Shown: positions 43,921 through 54,394 of the stretch, piece after piece
Layout of the letters: every line of letters begins with the position of its first letter
How positions within the stretch are numbered: position 1 is the first letter of the stretch
DNA from: an uncultured Candidatus Poseidoniales archaeon
GTDB lineage: Archaea; Thermoplasmatota; Poseidoniia; Poseidoniales; Poseidoniaceae
Direction: 5' to 3'
Length of the DNA: 64,000 nucleotides
Assembly: GCA_964613395.1 (NCBI GenBank)
Contig: CAZTGO010000006.1
Span: 3,764 to 67,763 of the forward strand
Position numbers and translations under genes: made by a program
The notes under the pieces: generated by a model
The model's database searches: none
Seen by the model: only the letters and a program-made list of their open reading frames with translations
What the model was told of the DNA's origin: nothing

Positions 43921-44982
43921 ATGGGTTTATTCCACTGCATCGTCAATCCAGCGAGTAGGGATTACCAGTGTGGTAAACAATGGCCAAAAATTCGGGCTGC
44001 AATTGAACAACGCGGTCATGAAGTCAAAGAATACATCACACAACATGTTGGGCATGCTTCACATCTTTCCAATGATATTCGAACCAGTTGGGAAGAGAAC
44101 GGTATTGGTGGCGAGGCCGAAGGTAAGCCACCGGTGGTTGTAGCCGTTGGTGGTGATGGTGTGGCCCATGAGGTCGCCAGTGGTATTCGAGGGTCAACGC
44201 TTGTTCTTGCTCAAATTCCGTTCGGATCAGGCAATGATTACTGTATCACCCATAACATTTCTCGAAAAAATCTTGACCAAGTTCTCGATGTCTTAGAAAG
44301 TGGCGTCAATAGGCATTGTGGAGCATGGCGCCTCGAAGGGTATGCATGCAACGAAGAGAAGGGATATCCTGCTCCGAGCCAAAATTCGTGGGATGGGGCA
44401 CCAAAGAATGAAAACAAAATTGTCAGGTGGGTCTTCCTTGAATCAGACGCGGGTATTACATCAGCAATTTCAAGAGCAAAATTGCGTCGGGCAAAATGGC
44501 TCAAGGGACCAAAAAAATACACGTATCTCGGAGTGACGACTATTCCTGTATGGCCTCGAAGGAAAGTGAGAATGCAGATTGATGATGAGGAGCCATGGGA
44601 TGGTGACATCACCATGTTCACTGCTACCACTGGGGAAACGTTTGGAGGCGGGTACAAAGTGAATCCGGGTATGTTTCCCATTCGAGAAAAAGGTATGATC
44701 GTCTTTGCTGCACGACTTTCTCGACTCGCCATGTTGCAGTTGATGGGACCGGTGAAAAAAGGAAAGCATATTGGAAAATGGGGCATATACCAAAAAGATG
44801 CAATGAACATTCAACTTTGGCCGCTTTCAAAAGATGGGTCGAAAAGTGAGATTCCTCTTGAGCCTCCCACATTCATTCAAGCAGACGGTGAGCCACTTCT
44901 TCAGCTGCCGGCTTCACTTGAATGGCATACAAAACAACTCTTTGTTCGAGGTGCCCCAACAATTTCTTGGGCTTCAGAATGA
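43921..44982 (+). CDS. Diacylglycerol/lipid kinase family protein (YegS/BmrU-like)
   Basis: IVNPAS, VAVGGDGVAHEV, IPFGSGND, FGGG, IQADGE. ATG 43921 chosen as start. Confidence 0.88.
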   Translation: MGLFHCIVNPASRDYQCGKQWPKIRAAIEQRGHEVKEYITQHVGHASHLSNDIRTSWEENGIGGEAEGKPPVVVAVGGDGVAHEVASGIRGSTLVLAQIPFGSGNDYCITHNISRKNLDQVLDVLESGVNRHCGAWRLEGYACNEEKGYPAPSQNSWDGAPKNENKIVRWVFLESDAGITSAISRAKLRRAKWLKGPKKYTYLGVTTIPVWPRRKVRMQIDDEEPWDGDITMFTATTGETFGGGYKVNPGMFPIREKGMIVFAARLSRLAMLQLMGPVKKGKHIGKWGIYQKDAMNIQLWPLSKDGSKSEIPLEPPTFIQADGEPLLQLPASLEWHTKQLFVRGAPTISWASE

Positions 44983-46458
44983 AAAGTCTGAGAAGTCATC
45001 GTCTTCATCGTCATCGAAGGTTTGGCGTTGCGGCGGGGCTCGTCGTTGAGGTTCCGCCTCACTCTTTTCTTCCCATGGCTGAGATGTTGCTTTTTTGACC
45101 GCTTTTCGTCGACGAACAGGAGGTTGACGCTTCACCTCTGGCTCGGCTTGCCTTTCTTCAGGTTCTGAAGCCACAGTTGTTCTCGAAGGAGGCGGGCCTC
45201 GTGAACGAGGGGGTGTTGCTGATTCTCGGGCTGGTGGTTCTTTTGCAGCACTTGAACCAACCGAGGAGAGTTGAGAGGTCACAGCAGAGTTGCTTGATTT
45301 TCTGGTAGGGGCTTGTGCACCTGGCCCTGATGTTCGTGATGATTTTCCTGCAGTGGCGAGGACGCTATCCAAATCGAACCCACCTAGTTCGTCTGAATCT
45401 CCCTCGGAAGGAAGGATGGTCGAGGATTTTCTCTCTTCCAATTTTGCCTTTGCCTCTGCTTCTTTCCGTTGGCGTTTCAAACGTTCCTCAGGTGATTCCA
45501 TACCCTCTTTCTTTGCGACTTTAATATCGGCCTTTACTTTGGCCACCTTGGACATGCCTTCCTCTCCAACGAGGACTTTCATCTGGTCTTTTGCATCTTT
45601 GAGAAGCAACGTCTTTGAGAAAATGAAGGTAGCAACAGCCCCTCCAATTCCAAAGATAAAGAACGATGAAATGTAACCTGCTCGGCCACCAATAAAGGCA
45701 ACATCACCGTGTACCCATTCTTCTTCATCGTTACCGTTTTCGGAAATAACGCCGCTTGAAAGCACAATTTCCTCAACCAAGACATATTCAGAAAATTTGT
45801 CACCATCAAATGCAAGGTCACACTTCGAATTCGCTTCAAATCGGTTCGCATTGTTGGGTAGGATATATCCTGAGATTGATACTGGCTGATGCCACTCAGT
45901 GAGGGCAACCATACCTTCAAGGACATTTTGTGATGATGGAATAAGGCCAAGCACATACCACTTGCTTTCCAATTCTGATTTGGTAAGGTCAACGCCACCG
46001 GATTTGGTGTCCGGACTAATTGGGTCTTCCCATGTGTTGAGGTCGATTCGTGGCCCTTCGCCAGCAGGAACATTTTCTGCATTTGAAAAGCTCATTCTTT
46101 GAACTGCAACGGCTAACGCCGTGCTTCGTGATAGAACAGTGGGTAGACCTTCCTCAGCAATATCTTTGTTGAATGGTTCATGTGCATCATAAAGATAACT
46201 GGATGCGAGATAACCAGTGAAGGTAAATGCCGTGCCGTTGTTTTCACTCGTGTTCGAATCTTGATCTACATCGCAACCAATGGAATTTACAGTTCGGGAA
46301 TCGGATGTTGTGAAAGGTGTTAACGTGTATGTCCCATCACCATTATCGTTGACATGAACAGCATTTGATGATTTTCCCCACTCTGGTGCAGCAGGACCAA
46401 TACAGCCTGCTACAACCATCGAGGCGAGGATAACCAACACAAGCACACCTCGGCGCAT
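44974..46458 (-). CDS. Hypothetical lipoprotein-like membrane protein with long charged disordered cytoplasmic tail
   Basis: Start MRRGVLVLVILASMVVAGCIG (lipobox-like). TM at YISSFFIFGIGGAVATFIF. S/P/R/E-rich tail. Confidence 0.75.
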   Translation of the reverse strand: MRRGVLVLVILASMVVAGCIGPAAPEWGKSSNAVHVNDNGDGTYTLTPFTTSDSRTVNSIGCDVDQDSNTSENNGTAFTFTGYLASSYLYDAHEPFNKDIAEEGLPTVLSRSTALAVAVQRMSFSNAENVPAGEGPRIDLNTWEDPISPDTKSGGVDLTKSELESKWYVLGLIPSSQNVLEGMVALTEWHQPVSISGYILPNNANRFEANSKCDLAFDGDKFSEYVLVEEIVLSSGVISENGNDEEEWVHGDVAFIGGRAGYISSFFIFGIGGAVATFIFSKTLLLKDAKDQMKVLVGEEGMSKVAKVKADIKVAKKEGMESPEERLKRQRKEAEAKAKLEERKSSTILPSEGDSDELGGFDLDSVLATAGKSSRTSGPGAQAPTRKSSNSAVTSQLSSVGSSAAKEPPARESATPPRSRGPPPSRTTVASEPEERQAEPEVKRQPPVRRRKAVKKATSQPWEEKSEAEPQRRAPPQRQTFDDDEDDDFSDFSF

Positions 46459-46511
46459 GTTCCATCTAAGATGGATTGAGTTTGAGAACTCTTCCCTTGA
46501 TTTTTTTGTTA

Positions 46512-46597
46512 TGGCGCGGTCGGAGAGATTTGAACTCCCGAGTCCAAGGGACACCGGATTTCAAATCCGGCGCAATACCAGGCTATGCGACGACCGC
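46512..46597 (-). tRNA. tRNA-Ser(TGA), CCA encoded
   Basis: Reverse complement gives acceptor GCGGTCG/CGACCGC, anticodon arm CCGGA-TTTGAAA-TCCGG, a long variable arm, and G-CCA. Confidence 0.96.
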
Positions 46598-46618: not shown

Positions 46619-48151
46619 TCATTTTTTACGACTTTCCCTTGGCTTTTCTAATTGATAACTCCAAAACATGAGTCCGAGGACGAGTACAAGAAGTGTTTGA
46701 GTTAACGAGGCACTAGGTAAGCCAGGTCCTTCTCCAACACCTAGCGTGTTTTCTTTCTCCATCAACTCTCGAACATCCTTGACAAAATCTTCCGGAATCC
46801 AATGCTCACCAGCCCACATGATGCGAGGCACGCGTTCTTGGTCGAGCAAATAGGTTGCACTCGAGTGACCCACAGTGTAATTCTTGGTTGCGTCCTCCAC
46901 ACAGAGTAACATCGTTGAGTCGGGCCAACTGTAACCAGCATCACACATGCAGTGAAGGGATTGGTTTTCTCCCATCAACCACCCATGCCCGCCACATGCT
47001 TGTTCATCGTCTCCGAACGAGTATGGGGAAGGGATGTCACTCAAGTTGGTGGTCGAAGGATGCCAAGCAATTTTTGTTGTTGCGTTGACATCATCCATTC
47101 CAACCTGAGACTCTTCCCAGACCGAGTTTGTTTGGTTCCATGTGGACAATTGCCACCACCATGTTTCATTCTCACTCGGTTTTTTATCGATTGATGAGAG
47201 GTAATTGCCCCATGATGAAAAGACAATATCAGCATCGTATTGATTGTGAGTGAAAGCGGATGCTGATGCTGCAAAGCCATTCCAACTTGAGATGCCGGTC
47301 ATCATTGTTGTTTGGTTTTCGTACATCACAGTCATACTAGCAACGTTCTGTGGGTCGGGAGAATTTAGATTGCTTGTATTTGCATTGGAGGGTGCCCACG
47401 CAAAATGAGAGATATCAAGAACATCAATGGAAGAAATTCCATCTTCTGCGACAAGCCATGAATCAAATTTTTCATTCCAGTACAATACTTCCCATGACCA
47501 GTTCGCATTGGATTCGATGTTGTTGATGCTCGTCATCATTTGACCGTCTTCGTTTTGGCTCGTTTCAATATCGATTCCGAGTTGTCGTGCAAAGATTTGA
47601 GTCCATGTCCGTCCTTCAAAACTCAGCATGAGTGGGATAAATGTGCCATTATCTGACTCGATGAGGAGAGATTGTGAACGCAATTCTTCTTTGAATTCTT
47701 CTTCTTGGTTTTGCTCATACACATTTTCGACAACGATGCCAAAGGTTGACCAAATAGGGAGCAATTGCTCATATGTTCCTGTAAGATGAGGCCAAGAAGC
47801 TTGGTGTATTTGTGAATACGTTTCCAGTTCCTCGGGACCATCATGCAGTGGATCGGTTGTGATTGAGACAAATGTAATATGATTCTTTTCTTCATCGGTA
47901 AGAAGGGTTTCAACAGATTTCATCGATTGTGTAATTGTTGGACACACATCAGGGCATCTTGTAAAAATGAATGAAAGAACGATGATATCGTTTGAATCTC
48001 TGTCAAAATTATATTCTGAGCCGTTCTGTGTTGTCAGTGTAAAATTTTGAATTGGTTGCCTGCTCAACTGATATCCAATGAAAGCCGCTTGTGTGGTAGA
48101 AGTACACAGAAAAAGGCACGCTACGATAACAAGCAAGGTTTTGCGAAGCAT
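46619..48151 (-). CDS. SCO1/SenC copper chaperone with ~280-aa internal insertion
   Basis: FIFTRCPDVCP, SITTDPLHD, WPHLTG and distal YTVGHSSATYLLD. Signal peptide and C-terminal TM. Confidence 0.88.
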   Translation of the reverse strand: MLRKTLLVIVACLFLCTSTTQAAFIGYQLSRQPIQNFTLTTQNGSEYNFDRDSNDIIVLSFIFTRCPDVCPTITQSMKSVETLLTDEEKNHITFVSITTDPLHDGPEELETYSQIHQASWPHLTGTYEQLLPIWSTFGIVVENVYEQNQEEEFKEELRSQSLLIESDNGTFIPLMLSFEGRTWTQIFARQLGIDIETSQNEDGQMMTSINNIESNANWSWEVLYWNEKFDSWLVAEDGISSIDVLDISHFAWAPSNANTSNLNSPDPQNVASMTVMYENQTTMMTGISSWNGFAASASAFTHNQYDADIVFSSWGNYLSSIDKKPSENETWWWQLSTWNQTNSVWEESQVGMDDVNATTKIAWHPSTTNLSDIPSPYSFGDDEQACGGHGWLMGENQSLHCMCDAGYSWPDSTMLLCVEDATKNYTVGHSSATYLLDQERVPRIMWAGEHWIPEDFVKDVRELMEKENTLGVGEGPGLPSASLTQTLLVLVLGLMFWSYQLEKPRESRKK

Positions 48152-48160
48152 GTACGAACC

Positions 48161-48508
48161 TCATCGCTGGCCAGCATAATCCCAGTTTGGCGTGCACCAA
48201 TCTGGAAGGCCTGTGACTGCTCCAGGATTGGATAGTCCGATTCCCCAAAGCATCAACAAGACGAAGATGACTGGAAAAATTGCAGTACGGAAGTAAATCA
48301 CAGGGTCACCTCGAAGGTGCATGAAATAAGCTGCAATTCCGTATCCTTTGACAATACCAACGCCGATGAGAATTGCCCACACAATCATGAGGTCCAACTC
48401 GATGTACACTGCACCAACTTCGAGGATGGTAAATACCATGAGAACAATAAAGTTCCAGAAGTAGATGTCTTTGCCCATAATTAATTTGTGATCTCCCATT
48501 TTTTTCAC
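48161..48508 (-). CDS. Cytochrome c oxidase subunit IV (prokaryotic CtaF/CyoD-like)
   Basis: Three TM helices with LMVFTILE, IVKGYGIAAYFMHL. Position directly after coxIII. Confidence 0.85.
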   Translation of the reverse strand: MKKMGDHKLIMGKDIYFWNFIVLMVFTILEVGAVYIELDLMIVWAILIGVGIVKGYGIAAYFMHLRGDPVIYFRTAIFPVIFVLLMLWGIGLSNPGAVTGLPDWCTPNWDYAGQR

Positions 48509-48509
48509 C

Positions 48510-49919
48510 TCAATACAAATAGAACGCTGGGAAAATGGCTACCCAAGCCAAATCCACAAAGTGCCAATACAAACCAAAGTATTCGATACCTTGACCGTTT
48601 TCTTCATCAAAACCAACGGTATCTGCTTTGAATATCAAGTAAAGCATCACTAGCAATCCAATGAAAACGTGCAATCCGTGTGCACCAGTTGCAATGTAAA
48701 AGATAGAACCACCTTGTGTACCGATATCGAACCCTTCAGCAACAAGATGGCTCCATTCAATGAGTTTCAGCACGATGAACATGGAACCGAGAAGGAATGT
48801 CGCAAGGAGATAATTGCGTACAGCAATCTTCTGTGTTGGCATGATTTTACCCATGAATCCTTTTGGAGCTTCCCAGTTGTGTGCTTTCGCTGTCTTGAGT
48901 GCTAGGACGATGGTGTAAGAAGAAATGATGAGAGCAAATGTGTTAATTGCACCTGGAAGCAATGTCATGAAGTCGCCTTGGCCGCCGATAACAGTACCGT
49001 CTTCGAGGACCATGCTCCCACCGTTTGGTCTGAGGAAATCGGATGCTGTGAGCATATCAACTTGATACGAAACCGCACCGTTTTCACCGACGACTTGACA
49101 AGAGGGATTTTCCTCTTGTACTTGCCAAAATGTACACCACTCTGTTCTCATTCGTAGATAGGACGAGAAGAATGTGGCGAACACCATAACTTCGGACATA
49201 ATGAAAACCCAAAGCCCTGCTTTTCGGATATGTTGCCCTTCAAATGGATGCGATGTTGCAATTTGCTCGCCGTGGCCGATAAACGGAAGGTCTTCTCTCC
49301 ACCAATTTGCAACACCGATGGCAACGATGACCAAACCGAGCAAACTGAGCGTCATATCACCCACATTACCGCCTGCATCGGTCATCAGCATTGCCTTCGC
49401 AGCATCTGCGAACATTGGGAATCCCATTAAGAAGAGGAGTATACCAAATGAGAAGATAATCGGGGATGATGATCCGTGGTGCTCGTGACCATATTCGTCT
49501 TCATGCCCATGGCCATCACCATGGTCGCCGGATGGCTGAATTGAATTCATGAAGCCACCAAGTCCGATAAAGAGTGCATACACTACACACATGAGGAGAA
49601 TGGTAATACCTGCGGTTCTCCATGTCAAGTACGAAAGATGAGCTTCTACATAGTGATGGTGTGCATCTTCTTCCACCTTGTGCAATTGATCTAATTCACT
49701 TTGCGTTGCGGTTCCTGAATCTGATGCCGCTTTGTAGTCTTCTTTTGCAACCTCGTAAGCATGGTGTGCATCTTCATATTCATGGTGTTTTAGATTCGCA
49801 ACACCAACGCCCATGACCCCGTAAGCGAGGACGCCAACGATGAGGAAAATTGCACCAAATAGGACTGCTCTCATCCAAATGGTATTTTCGATATCTGCAC
49901 CATGTCCGTGGGCACTCAT
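48510..49919 (-). CDS. Cytochrome c oxidase subunit III with His-rich N-terminal extension
   Basis: GLWVFIMSEVMVFATFFSSY, NTFALIISS, FYIATGAHGLHVFIG, GLYWHFVDLAWVAIFPAFY. Confidence 0.92.
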   Translation of the reverse strand: MSAHGHGADIENTIWMRAVLFGAIFLIVGVLAYGVMGVGVANLKHHEYEDAHHAYEVAKEDYKAASDSGTATQSELDQLHKVEEDAHHHYVEAHLSYLTWRTAGITILLMCVVYALFIGLGGFMNSIQPSGDHGDGHGHEDEYGHEHHGSSSPIIFSFGILLFLMGFPMFADAAKAMLMTDAGGNVGDMTLSLLGLVIVAIGVANWWREDLPFIGHGEQIATSHPFEGQHIRKAGLWVFIMSEVMVFATFFSSYLRMRTEWCTFWQVQEENPSCQVVGENGAVSYQVDMLTASDFLRPNGGSMVLEDGTVIGGQGDFMTLLPGAINTFALIISSYTIVLALKTAKAHNWEAPKGFMGKIMPTQKIAVRNYLLATFLLGSMFIVLKLIEWSHLVAEGFDIGTQGGSIFYIATGAHGLHVFIGLLVMLYLIFKADTVGFDEENGQGIEYFGLYWHFVDLAWVAIFPAFYLY

Positions 49920-52255
49920 GAGCTCGCCTCCTTTGGTTCGCCTTTCCAGAGTTTTTCTTTGATCGAAGGCGTATCGTTATGATGACCATAGTGCTCATTC
50001 ATGTCGTTTTGTGTAGGGATGTCATGGAATGATGGCGTTGGTGGAGGTGATGTCGTCGACCATTCGAGGGACCAACCGCCCCATGGGTCTTTGCCGACAG
50101 GTTCGCCTCGCTTTCCAGAGTAGATGATGTTCCACACGAGAAGGAGTTGGCTGAGGCCAAAGATGAAGGCGAAGATTGACACTGCCATATTATACTCAGC
50201 GAATCCAGATTCAACGGTGTAGGTATGTGTTCTTCTTGGCATACCCATGATGCCAAGTGCGTGCATTGGCCAGAATGCGGCATTGTAAGCCGAGAAGCCA
50301 ATGAGGAAATGCCAGAGACCAAGTGTTTCGTTGAGTTTTCGGCCGGTCACCTTTGGGTACCAGTAGTATAGACCAGAGAACAGTGCAAACACAGTTCCAC
50401 CGATAAACACGTAGTGGAAGTGAGCCACGACGAAATACGAATCATGGAAATGGATATCAAGACCTGCTACTGGGAAAAACATTCCAGAAATTCCACCGAG
50501 TGTAAACGTGACGAGGAAGCCAAGAGACCACAATGTGTGGGTCTTCATGACAAGGGAGCCACCCCAAAGCGTTGCGAGCCAGTTGAAGATTTTGGCTCCA
50601 GTTGGAATAGCCACAAGCATGGTTGTAATCATGAACGCTGCACGCCAAAATGGGTCCATACCCGATGTGAGCATGTGGTGCCCCCACACGATGAAGCCAA
50701 CAACACCGATACCGGCCATAGCGAAGACCATCGATTTGTACCCAAAGATCGACCTTCGAGCAGATGTTGCAAGAACTTCAGATACGATACCGAAGGCAGG
50801 CACAATCACAACGTATACCTCGGGATGGCCAAAGAACCAGAACAGGTGCTGGAACAACAACGGGTCCCCTCCCGCAACGAAGAATGTCGTTCCTATCGTG
50901 TGGTCAAACAGCAAGAAAAAGACACCGATGACAAGTGCTGGTAGAGACATGTACAACATGAATACGCTGATGAAAACCGACCATGTAAACAGAGGCATTC
51001 GCATCCATGTGACGCCAGGGGCTCGCATCGTGAACACAGTTGTAATGAAATTCACACCGCTTAGCGTAGAAGATGCACCGAGCATGGCCATGCCAGAGAT
51101 GAACGAAATCGTACCAAGGTTTGCTCCATATCCCGATAAACTTTCACCCAAGTTTGCTTCTGAAAGCGAAGCATATGGCGGGTACATGACCCATGTGATG
51201 TCAGCACCTTGACCAGACCAAATGCCCGAGAAAATGAGTGGTGCTGAAAACACGAGAAGCCAAAGTCCCATGGCGTTGATTCGAGGGAAGGCGAGGTCTT
51301 TTGCACCAATTTGCAACGGTAACACGTAATTCATGAAACCAGCAATCATTGGCATGGCCCCTAGGAAAATCATTGTCGTTCCGTGGAGTGTAAAGAACGA
51401 GTTGTATTCGTCGTAAGTGAGGAAATCGTTTTCTGGGAGAGCGAGTTGTATTCTAAACAATAGAGCAAGCAATCCTCCGACCAGGAAGAAAAAGAATCCG
51501 AAGAGGAAATACATCACGCCGACTTCTTTGTGATCAGTTGTGGTAAGCCAAGGTTTGAGGAATGACCAGAATTTGTCCATTGTAAAGGTGTCAGGTGAAC
51601 GTCGGTAAAACACCCAAAGGATGCCGAGGAAAATTAGTCCAACAGCGAGACCGATGGCTGTGATGAAGATGACGAGGGCAGATGCACTCGGACCGGTTGA
51701 TTCAGCGTTAACACCTGGAATGGAAATCACGACTTTATTCCAGTAGTCTCCCGATGACCCTCCATTTCCAGTGTTGCCGTTCACAGCGTTACCGTAGACT
51801 GTAAGTTCAACTGTTTTGGTATCATCTGCTGGTGCGGTGAGTTCAAAGTCCCACGACCTGAATTTGTTCCCATCAACCGTGTGTGTCAATCCGCCTTCAT
51901 ATTCATAGGAGAGCGTTTCATCAACACCGGTGACGGTTGTGCCACTCGAAGCAATGATTCTGAATCCACCGTAAGGAACAGTTCTTGAGCCATCGGTAAC
52001 GATGCCATCACCATCAAGTGTCATCACATCGTTTTGAATGGTCACAGTGAACGCATAGGTTTCACTCGCGTTGAACGATTCAGGCAATCCCGAAACTGTG
52101 ACTTTGGTGTCATCTGAAGGGGTTAGTCCGTGACAAAAACAACCTTGGCTGTTTGCTACTTCACCGATACCATTAGGTGCAGCTGAAAATTGAGGCATTG
52201 CAAAAATTGAGGCGAGGAAAGCGAGCGTAACCAGAACAAGGATACTCTTTCTCAT
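49916..52255 (-). CDS. Cytochrome c oxidase subunit I (A1 type) fused to N-terminal Reeler-like domain
   Basis: TTTDHK, TLHGTTMIF, DLAFPRIN (D channel), WFFGHPEVY, WGHHM, PTGAK (K channel), VAHFHYV. Confidence 0.96.
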   Translation of the reverse strand: MRKSILVLVTLAFLASIFAMPQFSAAPNGIGEVANSQGCFCHGLTPSDDTKVTVSGLPESFNASETYAFTVTIQNDVMTLDGDGIVTDGSRTVPYGGFRIIASSGTTVTGVDETLSYEYEGGLTHTVDGNKFRSWDFELTAPADDTKTVELTVYGNAVNGNTGNGGSSGDYWNKVVISIPGVNAESTGPSASALVIFITAIGLAVGLIFLGILWVFYRRSPDTFTMDKFWSFLKPWLTTTDHKEVGVMYFLFGFFFFLVGGLLALLFRIQLALPENDFLTYDEYNSFFTLHGTTMIFLGAMPMIAGFMNYVLPLQIGAKDLAFPRINAMGLWLLVFSAPLIFSGIWSGQGADITWVMYPPYASLSEANLGESLSGYGANLGTISFISGMAMLGASSTLSGVNFITTVFTMRAPGVTWMRMPLFTWSVFISVFMLYMSLPALVIGVFFLLFDHTIGTTFFVAGGDPLLFQHLFWFFGHPEVYVVIVPAFGIVSEVLATSARRSIFGYKSMVFAMAGIGVVGFIVWGHHMLTSGMDPFWRAAFMITTMLVAIPTGAKIFNWLATLWGGSLVMKTHTLWSLGFLVTFTLGGISGMFFPVAGLDIHFHDSYFVVAHFHYVFIGGTVFALFSGLYYWYPKVTGRKLNETLGLWHFLIGFSAYNAAFWPMHALGIMGMPRRTHTYTVESGFAEYNMAVSIFAFIFGLSQLLLVWNIIYSGKRGEPVGKDPWGGWSLEWSTTSPPPTPSFHDIPTQNDMNEHYGHHNDTPSIKEKLWKGEPKEASS

Positions 52256-53241
52256 TAGTAACCACCTCCTGATGCCTCTGCTTTGACTCCAGTATCAACA
52301 TCGCAGAAGTCATTTGAACCGACGCCAGTCCATTCCCGTGCCACGACTTTGACAACTCCACCCATCATAGAATGCTGATTACCGCAGTATTCAGCACAAC
52401 GAATTGGAAATTCTCCTGCTCGGTCAGGCGTCGCCATCATGACCGTGCCGCTTTCTAAACCTGGAACGAGATCTTCCTTGACACCCCACTCAGGTAGCCA
52501 GAAGGAGTGTTGAACGCCTACATAGTTTGGGTTGGAGTCGTCTGAAGGCTTTGAGTGCATAGTGAACACTGTATTTTCGTCACACGGCACAATCATAGGT
52601 TCATTAGATGCAGACGAGAACATGTGGCCTTCTGGGATGTGCATCCATGTGTGGAGGACATCGCCTGCTTCGTTTGTAACTTCGACGATAGCGAAGGTTC
52701 CCTCATCGAAAGGTTGGTTGATCGTGAGGAGGCCAGTCATCTGGTCGAGTTCGTATTGATTTTCATCCGAGCCGACGATGACTGTAGCGTTCACGCCTGC
52801 GGATTGAGAGGCATCGACAGTGAGCGAGCCTTGCCAATTGACATCAACACCGGTTGACCTGGAATCGTCTTCCCAGGTAAGTTCATCGGTGTAGTGGTAT
52901 TCCCAGAACCATTGTTTGCCGACGATTTCCATATCATTGGTCTCTGCTGGGTCTTCGGGAATCTTCCAAACCTCTGTGTTAGAAGCCAAAGCAAGAACGA
53001 TGAGCCAAGCGACGATGATCGTAGGAAGGACATAGAACATAACTTCGATACGTGTATTGTGTCGATCGACGGGGAATGAACCGACCTCGATGTGGTCGAC
53101 TTGAGTGGTGTCAGGCTCGACACCGTCACGATATCTCAAGATGGCTAAAAAGAGCCAACCAAACGTAAAGATACCCACGATAATAGACCAAAACATGAAC
53201 TTCTCGTATAGAACTGCGAAGACTGTGTCTCGTGCAACCAT
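52255..53241 (-). CDS. Cytochrome c oxidase subunit II with insertion
   Basis: Two TMs, GKQWFWEY, VQHSFWLP, CAEYCGNQHSMM (complete CuA ligands). No CxxCH cytochrome c domain. ATG 53241 chosen as start. Confidence 0.94.
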   Translation of the reverse strand: MVARDTVFAVLYEKFMFWSIIVGIFTFGWLFLAILRYRDGVEPDTTQVDHIEVGSFPVDRHNTRIEVMFYVLPTIIVAWLIVLALASNTEVWKIPEDPAETNDMEIVGKQWFWEYHYTDELTWEDDSRSTGVDVNWQGSLTVDASQSAGVNATVIVGSDENQYELDQMTGLLTINQPFDEGTFAIVEVTNEAGDVLHTWMHIPEGHMFSSASNEPMIVPCDENTVFTMHSKPSDDSNPNYVGVQHSFWLPEWGVKEDLVPGLESGTVMMATPDRAGEFPIRCAEYCGNQHSMMGGVVKVVAREWTGVGSNDFCDVDTGVKAEASGGGY

Positions 53242-53476
53242 GCACTCACCAACCGAACCGCCGTGGCGGATGGACTTAAGCATTTGTTGATTGGGGTTTG
53301 GGAGAGGCCATTCTTTGCGATTGGAGTAATGTCTCGCCGTCATTCGATTTTCACCATCAATGAAAGATTACGATTTTGAAAAATTTCTTCTTGTTTTCTT
53401 TTGCGAAAAAATACCAGCGAACGACCGTCTTAACTGATGAAAGGACATTATTTGTAAATGTCAATCCTCTACTCAA

Positions 53477-53935: not shown

Positions 53936-54394
53936 TCACTCAAATTCAAATGCATGAGCATCTTCTTTTACCGTATTCAAGACCACATGTGTGAATGACC
54001 TTGCTACCCCTTCGAGCGTGAAAACCGTTTTTGTGAGGTTATCGAGATCTTGTCTATTTTTGACTCGTGCTAAGACTATTGAATCCCAGTCGCCTGTTAC
54101 GTCATATACTGCAAAAACTCGAGGGTCAGAGGAAATTTTGTGCTGGACTTCAATCATTTTTCCCTTCACGATTCGCAATCCTGCCATAATCGTCATTCCA
54201 TATCCGATTTTTTCCGGGTTGACTTTCACTTGATAGCCCAAAATAATCCCGTCATCCTCCAACTTTCGAAGACGATTTGCAACTGTCCCTTGAGAAACGC
54301 CTACTTCTTTTGCAAGGTCTCGTTGACTGCGTCGGGCATCGATCTGTAAGGCTTTGAGTAAATCGATATCGATGTTATCGAGACTACCGCTCAT
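53936..54394 (-). CDS. Lrp/AsnC family transcriptional regulator
   Basis: LDNIDIDLLKALQIDARRSQRDLAKEVGVSQGTVANRLRKLEDDGIILGY, YDVTGDWD. Confidence 0.95.
   Translation of the reverse strand: MSGSLDNIDIDLLKALQIDARRSQRDLAKEVGVSQGTVANRLRKLEDDGIILGYQVKVNPEKIGYGMTIMAGLRIVKGKMIEVQHKISSDPRVFAVYDVTGDWDSIVLARVKNRQDLDNLTKTVFTLEGVARSFTHVVLNTVKEDAHAFEFE

Follow-up and report, generated by a model that had tools for sequence, protein, structure and literature searches.

SCO1/SenC/PrrC proteins, such as Bacillus subtilis Sco/YpmQ (1xzo), Thermus thermophilus Sco1 (2k6v) and human SCO1 (1wp0), have a thioredoxin-like fold, reside outside the cytoplasmic membrane and carry a CxxxC motif together with a distal His in the context 'Y-x-V-x-H-S/T...Y-L-hydrophobic'. 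They are genetically linked to aa3-type oxidases with a CuA site. We describe here a SCO gene with these same features from an uncultured Candidatus Poseidoniales archaeon (GCA_964613395.1, contig CAZTGO010000006.1, positions 3,764 to 67,763; we call this whole stretch of 64,000 nucleotides the window). Poseidoniales (Marine Group II) rank with the most abundant archaea in surface ocean waters and are not known in culture. The protein departs from the canonical form in the hairpin that bears the distal His, known as 'loop 8' in structurally characterized SCO proteins, where it holds some 270 residues more. Its spacing from CxxxC to the ligand His429 is 359 residues, non-canonical against about 90. 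In sequence and predicted structure, this insert (hereafter the arm) comprises two SLBB domains of the DUF4430/transcobalamin type followed by a small Cys module resembling a reduced EGF repeat.

The gene (46619..48151; all window positions below refer to the minus strand) encodes a protein of 510 residues, which passes Pfam PF02630 (SCO1-SenC) with 88.4 bits against a cut-off of 22.8 (E 5e-25), over residues 35-153 only. The same family is matched by all 36 of the 36 orthologues in our conservation alignment, which are 34-61% identical to the query, and a scan of the protein against NCBIfam gave zero matches. The N-terminal piece of the thioredoxin-like domain (residues 24-148, 47708..48082), also recognized by Foldseek, matches the SCO structures 2k6v, 4hde, 1xzo and human SCO1 in PDB sequence searches. 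There the CPDVC copper-binding/redox motif (residues 66-70, 47942..47956) aligns to the 'CPDVC' of 2k6v; both cysteines, Cys66 and Cys70, are invariant (n=36). The C-terminal piece (residues 424-468, 46748..46882) has a beta-beta-alpha form, and residues 418-465 make up a second aligned piece on Bacillus anthracis SCO 4hde (chain residues 122-170, including its His). His429 (nucleotides 46865-46867), which ends 'YTVGH', falls on this 4hde His within the motif 'QVIHGTSFYLID', and G428 and H429 are both invariant. Since residues 35-153 and 418-465 both align to SCO folds, the SCO domain is complete but split, and the alignments indicate that all three copper ligands, Cys66, Cys70 and His429, are kept.

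The AlphaFold model is consistent with this division. Strands 432-436 and 442-447 and helix 453-467 reach block-mean predicted local distance difference test (pLDDT) values of 82-91, and values below 50 are found at residues 143-146 and 413-429, that is, in both linkers and at His429. Strand 'FGIVVEN' (residues 137-143) is separated from His429 by a gap of 286 residues. Its counterpart in the PDB sequence alignment is strand 'FGVFYQK' of T. thermophilus Sco1, which presumably lies about 13 residues from the His, and we therefore estimate a net insert of about 270 residues in the His-bearing hairpin loop. An earlier note on this DNA had placed an insert at 46883-47725, which corresponds to residues 143-423, between CPDVC and YTVGH of a SCO protein; translation, Pfam and the 4hde alignment bear this out. 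A separate observation concerns residue Q149 (47705-47707) in the first strand of the split hairpin: its column is His in more than 90% of aligned orthologues ('VIDAH') and could provide an extra ligand in most family members. This His is absent from the window protein and from its closest relative, P0002.

The SCO gene closes a cluster of genes on one strand, CoxII-CoxI-CoxIII-CoxIV-SCO, in which the upstream cox genes span 48161..53343. These encode CoxII (52255-53343, Pfam COX2), CoxI (49916-52255, COX1), CoxIII (48510-49919, COX3) and CoxIV (48161-48508, COX4_pro). The CuA ligands of CoxII are intact (H...CAEYCGNQHSMM, pattern H...CxExCxxxHxxM). The order coxII-I-III-IV-SCO is repeated in L002, L003 and L047, around both a 40%-identical orthologue and a one-repeat orthologue, with protein identity across the conserved order of about 40%. 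Operon structure, CuA ligands and synteny together support a functional link between the SCO protein and a CuA-containing haem-copper oxidase.

We may ask whether so unusual an architecture is an artefact, either an assembly chimera, as the earlier note had allowed, or a mis-called open reading frame (ORF) fusing the SCO gene to unrelated sequence. A search covering 5.8 billion proteins found 189 homologues, of which 120 were listed. Nearly all of the listed homologues are 500-540 residues long, the exceptions being one 288-residue fragment and two longer proteins, and every full-length homologue (at least 500 residues) among the matches listed has the same nested architecture. Those bearing a name are labelled as 'SCO family protein' from Poseidonia, Poseidoniaceae or 'Euryarchaeota' metagenome-assembled genomes (MAGs). 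The identical protein recurs in JGI, Logan and ENA data (P0001, 49 member sequences). Furthermore, invariant residues occur on both flanks of the insert and within it, the C-terminal piece completes the SCO fold, and the gene order around orthologues is conserved. Because invariant residues span the SCO core, both repeats and the Cys module, an assembly chimera can be dismissed and an artefact of any kind appears exceedingly improbable. We consider the architecture genuine and strongly conserved within one archaeal order.

The two halves of the insert are homologous to each other, with a local alignment score of 85 against 37 +/- 7 for shuffled sequence. A hidden Markov model (HMM) built from both repeats matches residues of about 159-258 and 271-369, each at about 1e-26. 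Repeat 1 extends over residues 158-258 (47378..47680; E 2e-26) and repeat 2 over residues 268-372 (47036..47350; E 4e-27). When all six-frame ORFs of the window were searched with this repeat HMM, no further copy was found outside the SCO gene. Trp and Gly residues of both repeats are invariant in the alignment; in repeat 2 the invariant residues are G315, W331, W333, L335, W338, N339, W345, D353 and W363. AlphaFold2, run with the family alignment and on the insert alone, predicts for the repeats the topology b1-b2-helix-hairpin-b3-b4-b5 with pLDDT mostly above 90, including in repeat 1.

Top Foldseek matches of the full-length model are all SCO or thioredoxin-fold proteins, which masks the insert; the insert was then modelled alone, with mean pLDDT 86 and a predicted template modelling (TM) score, pTM, of 0.78. 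Its first 19 PDB matches in Foldseek are only the transcobalamin beta domain (also matched by repeat 1), whole transcobalamins, intrinsic factor, haptocorrin and 3u7z, which we take to be the structural representative of Pfam DUF4430. They have E values of 4e-3 to 8e-2, probabilities of 0.91-1.00 and a TM score of 0.54 on the isolated beta domain. Beyond match 19 we observed only chance-level similarities, many of them to di-ubiquitin, which is likewise a beta-grasp in tandem. The transcobalamin-like SLBB clade is defined by a beta-hairpin that is inserted behind the helix (PMC1796856), and the predicted structure has this hairpin in both repeats.

Profile searches lead to the same family. The window protein has no direct match to PF14478 (DUF4430) at E<=1, a result that gauges the sensitivity of detection rather than structure, and 5 of the 36 orthologues do match, at best with E 1.7e-4; cluster P0101 has a precomputed PF14478 match. 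Against PDB sequences, the top match of the insert profile is the DUF4430 crystal structure 3u7z (E 0.017), most of whose alignment falls on repeat 2. Searched against 1.84 billion representatives, the profile retrieved the multi-repeat proteins P0136, P0142 and P0146 at 3.5e-55 (P0136) to 1.7e-39, and these pass PF14478 above its cut-off, at 3.8e-29 (P0136) to 1.4e-13, on overlapping residues. Alignment across all contexts gives the common signature G..I.G.....D.SW.W.L..WN.....WE.S.VG.D.........IAW. The DUF4430 assignment holds because of the orthologue matches, the top rank of 3u7z, the Foldseek result and the passing of PF14478 by P0136, P0142 and P0146. Judged by sequence and model, the repeats are DUF4430/transcobalamin-like SLBB beta-grasp domains, as the earlier note had anticipated, and the Foldseek comparison it had called for agrees.

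With the described members of this family (3u7z; transcobalamin beta domain 5no0), the window domains share the beta-grasp with its post-helix hairpin, the conserved Gly, an extracellular location and tandem repetition. They share the signature G..I.G......W.W.L..WN.....W..S.VG.D......IAW with relatives passing the Pfam threshold. They differ in being nested in a loop of another domain, whereas the family otherwise forms stand-alone or terminal modules, and they represent a Trp- and sequon-rich marine archaeal subfamily.

The strongest matches of the insert profile outside SCO proteins are 635-831-residue members of the ZnuA family (PF01297). Five such ZnuA/AdcA-type proteins, P0170, P0135, P0140, P0174 and P0179, have one or two SLBB domains each in their His-rich loop, with repeat-HMM E values of 1e-26 to 1e-29. 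In P0170, the N-lobe aligns to residues 5-81 of AdcA and the remainder to residues 93-279; because the alignment breaks between 81 and 93, we place an insertion of about 365 residues at the AdcA/ZnuA His-rich loop. It lies just upstream of a 'FDPHSW' motif, which we assume to carry a metal-ligand His. The SLBB domain of P0170 (residues 168-269) is embedded in His/Asp/Glu-rich tracts, and its gene (L001 1513-3540) lies in a ZnuA-ABC_tran-ABC-3 operon; close relatives come from Poseidoniaceae, Poseidoniales and Thalassarchaeaceae MAGs. The ZnuA-type proteins use the same SLBB subfamily, in the same archaeal order, in an extracytoplasmic protein and in a flexible loop immediately before a metal-ligand His. 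Their host, in contrast, is a cluster A-I solute-binding fold rather than a SCO domain, none is encoded in the window, and in place of the EGF-like knot their inserts hold long tracts rich in His and Asp, to which three of the five (P0135, P0174, P0179) add EF-hands.

A third context is provided by P0146 (L045 4662-11702), a surface protein with three DUF4430 repeats and a CarboxypepD_reg domain, which has as its neighbours a Zip-family permease and a FecCD/Peripla_BP_2/ABC_tran importer. Importers of this type serve siderophores, haem or B12. By its domain and gene contexts, a single SLBB subfamily is linked in three cases to the handling of metals or metal chelates outside the cell; in two of them it lies in the loop directly before a ligand His.

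The resemblance to the beta domain that binds B12 in transcobalamin, intrinsic factor and haptocorrin is the main support for another suggestion of the earlier note, corrinoid binding. In this reading the two domains would bind B12 or a related cofactor, perhaps another tetrapyrrole, and make the protein bifunctional. Prokaryotic members of the clade have been predicted to scavenge B12 or its precursors, or a different metabolite in archaea (PMC1796856), and P0146 does adjoin a BtuF/FecB-type importer. However, identity to transcobalamin is only 13-18% in the Foldseek alignments, and the protein differs from transcobalamin in having no alpha/alpha-toroid partner domain, the part that supplies much of the B12 pocket there (PMC1796856). 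The conserved neighbourhood consists purely of cox genes, with no B12-related gene in the operon. Moreover, the use of the same module in ZnuA speaks less for corrinoids than for a structural role or a general part in handling metals outside the cell. The B12 contacts of the transcobalamin beta domain are mostly backbone-mediated (PMC1796856), and for that reason the sequence itself neither supports nor decides corrinoid binding. We do not favour this possibility, which seems to us very unlikely. The same note also considered that the arm may bind some other cofactor, or may gate the His ligand.

The end of the arm is a Cys module (residues 383-418, 46898..47005, EQACGGHGWLMGENQSLHCMCDAGYSWPDSTMLLCV), for which the earlier note had proposed an EGF-like identity. 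An EGF domain has six Cys with disulfides C1-C3, C2-C4 and C5-C6, against only four conserved Cys here (386, 401, 403 and 417). Twelve positions are invariant among the orthologues (C386, G390, W391, M393, G394, H400, C401, M402, C403, Y407, W409 and C417), and H389 is nearly so. In Pfam, no curated EGF family model is above threshold on the window protein; the module stays below thresholds (ADGRF3_N, 15.6 bits against 31), as do the EGF matches of its orthologues (cEGF in 3/36, EGF_3 in 1/36, E about 0.02). The module profile retrieves no EGF domain from PDB sequences, only chance-level MenB (0.12) and a CD46 sushi domain (0.65). A word-indexed homologue search with the 41-column profile gave six candidates and one match.

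The teneurin-type resemblance comes from P0238, a protein retrieved by the insert profile. Its repeats 'CSGHGWVHGDHCHCDAGYYAAGLEC' ('CSGHGWVHGDHCHCDAGYY') pass Pfam EGF_Teneurin with 30.1 bits against a cut-off of 24.3, and these passing repeats align with the Cys module. Compared with tenascin/teneurin EGF repeats (PF23106, PF25024), the module shares the pattern C-x-G-H-G-x...C-x-C-x-x-G-Y/F-x...C. It may also have their short beta-hairpin, since the model places two short strands at 390-393 and 400-403, with pLDDT of only 40-66. It differs in its four Cys, in having Trp391 at the Cys3 position and in a longer loop between 'GHGW' and 'HCMC'. We take the four Cys to be EGF Cys2, 4, 5 and 6, with Cys1 and Cys3 missing, reading them and Trp391 against the tenascin/teneurin pattern. 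'Reduced EGF-like knot' is therefore a reasonable description of the sequence; membership of the EGF family falls short, and the earlier proposal stands for its resemblance only. The module is also mobile: it occurs alone, in the same loop, in a 276-residue SCO protein (P0205), and in unrelated surface proteins, one of which (P0243) has a PGF-CTERM signal. A Cu(I) site of Met, His and Trp in the knot, similar to that of CusF/PCuAC, is kept as speculation only, since an EGF repeat protein of unrelated context has His at the same positions.

The SCO proteins retrieved in our searches differ in their number of SLBB repeats, which is zero, one, two or more, and in whether they have the knot. The commonest form has two repeats and a knot (121 sequences), and 19 sequences have one repeat and a knot. 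Proteins with one repeat are orthologues that occupy this same place in the operon; they come from Poseidoniaceae, Poseidoniia or Thermoplasmatota MAGs. The longest relatives, P0108 and P0009, give 4 and 5 repeat-HMM matches, some of them partial. Knot-less relatives show Met/His-rich linkers exactly between the last SLBB domain and the ligand His, for instance 'MSHEGMDQSMGNESMDHTMGHG...IIH' in P0143 and 'DDDHSHNHDHSEYNTLH' in P0151. In three relatives with SLBB repeats and no knot (P0143, P0151 and P0165), the Met/His stretches resemble known Cu(I)-binding Met/His motifs.

Only two hydrophobic segments are found in the protein, at residues 1-25 and about 478-497. The first is a putative signal peptide or anchor (residues 1-23, MLRKTLLVIVACLFLCTSTTQAA, 48083..48151) with a predicted helix at 2-17. 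In the family consensus, '..PASA|Y' looks like a signal peptidase site of the AxA type and suggests that the signal peptide is cleaved. The second, followed by a basic tail, is a predicted C-terminal membrane anchor (residues 479-510, 46622..46717) with a helix at 480-501 and an invariant P479. Canonical SCO proteins, in contrast, usually have an N-terminal anchor. As a type for the C-terminal anchor, PGF-CTERM was rejected: it is sub-threshold in relatives (P0062, P0088 and P0137, 15-17 bits against a cut-off of 24.5 at the corresponding C-terminal position) and absent from the window protein, which has 'LPSASL' at that place and no match. Relatives do show a 'PGF'-type motif aligned to the anchor, for example 'SIPGFTFVLASLAIGLAVIATSRNE', and processing by an archaeosortase is possible in the family.

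Another difference from canonical SCO proteins lies in N-glycosylation sequons. The arm has 4.5 N-x-S/T sequons per 100 residues, and the SCO core has 1.1. Conserved sequon columns are N196, N226, N258 and N339, the last being the 'WN-x-T/S' of repeat 2. Because sequons are dense in the arm and several are conserved, we infer that the arm is exposed outside the cell and N-glycosylated; the predicted glycosylation would be heavy.

On balance, and with a slight lean only, we believe that the gene encodes a working extracytoplasmic copper chaperone or thiol-disulfide factor, whose arm serves copper acquisition or hand-over and possibly docking to CoxII. The protein would be exported via its N-terminal signal, held on the membrane by its C-terminal anchor, and would mature the CuA site of CoxII, encoded four genes upstream. 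Its mobile His-bearing hairpin would host the lineage-specific arm: two SLBB domains, then a small EGF-like knot with two putative disulfides, placed 12 residues before His429. The arm would take up extracellular copper, whether or not in organic complexes, and pass it to the Cys2His site beside it; it might also, or instead, dock onto the enlarged CoxII ectodomain. Candidate ligands for a transient site are H400, M393, M402 and W391 of the knot, the nearly invariant H389 and acidic residues of the linker. In support of such an accessory role, we note the ZnuA parallel, the Met/His linkers of knot-less relatives, the neighbourhood of P0146 and the invariant His and Met residues of the knot.

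Several observations weigh against a copper-handling arm. No residue of metal-ligand type is conserved inside the SLBB domains across contexts (SCO, ZnuA and multi-DUF4430 proteins); the conserved positions are Gly, Trp and N-x-S/T sequons, a pattern that looks structural. The signature of teneurin-type EGF repeats ('GHG', 'HCxC'), which P0238 has too, accounts in part for the knot's His and Met. Flexible loops beside metal sites may merely be permissive insertion points, and with pLDDT below 50 at residues 413-429 the model gives no reliable position of His429 relative to CxxxC. Finally, orthologues have anything between 0 and about 4 repeats, and so labile a number suits a spacer better than it suits a device for precise binding.

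These points lead to the main rival, in which the arm is a structural element: glycosylated, ligand-free modules would lengthen, shield or position the SCO domain, and copper chemistry would take place only at the Cys2His site. Variants of it have the arm cross the glycocalyx or S-layer space, or bind surface glycans via its Trp-rich faces. Enrichment of sequons in the arm and the occurrence of the EGF-like module in unrelated surface proteins such as P0243 are in keeping with this, and for other SLBB families binding or tethering to polysaccharides has been proposed (PMC1796856). It leaves unexplained, however, two independent insertions directly before the metal-ligand His of two unrelated metal proteins, as well as the Met/His-rich linkers found at that very spot in relatives lacking the EGF-like knot. 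We regard the spacer arm and its variants alike as rather unlikely, if worth serious consideration, and retain the copper chaperone with an accessory arm.

We may also hypothesize, more boldly, that DUF4430/SLBB is a portable extracellular 'metal antenna' in Poseidoniales. It would have been grafted independently into flexible loops shortly before a ligand His, in SCO proteins for copper and in ZnuA for zinc, where, together with neighbouring elements rich in His and Met (the knot or the Met/His linkers), it would capture organically complexed trace metals from sea water and feed the neighbouring site. This broader idea is speculative and we think it improbable as it stands.

The oxidase subunits of the window also bear lineage-specific extensions. 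CoxI has 779 residues and its COX1 domain begins only at residue 245, CoxII has 362 residues with its cupredoxin domain at 246-334, and CoxIII has 469 residues with its best COX3 match at 366-468. As the repeat HMM found no second copy in the window, these extensions are not SLBB. Directly downstream of the SCO gene lies an ORF of 526 codons (44974-46554) with no Pfam match, a hydrophobic start and a long Ser/Pro/Lys/Glu-rich tail. ORFs of 486-511 codons without Pfam match hold the same position in L002, L003 and L047, in the last case on the opposite strand, and the downstream ORF may be a conserved, uncharacterized partner of the oxidase cluster. An AsnC/Lrp-type regulator (53936-54394) is encoded just upstream of the cox cluster, and a similar gene is found there in L002 and L003.

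We found no published description of the SCO insert or of the ZnuA parallel in the open-access literature, and databases label these proteins simply as 'SCO family protein'. What we describe is a new architecture within two known families rather than a system of a new kind. It offers a clear natural illustration of how domains can be nested in the mobile, ligand-bearing loop of a metallochaperone with a thioredoxin fold. To our knowledge, DUF4430 is a large family without a tested function in prokaryotes, and it would gain here a defined context. Should the arm prove to be only a glycosylated spacer, the result would be a modest improvement in annotation; its importance would rise if the arm were a metal-capture device, and a true metal antenna would give DUF4430 its first function in capturing metals or metal chelates beyond B12. 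The wider question is how Poseidoniales obtain copper and zinc at picomolar free concentrations. An operon-encoded SCO protein with accessory domains in its metal loop offers a testable handle on their extracellular metal trafficking, and the ZnuA proteins extend this handle to zinc.

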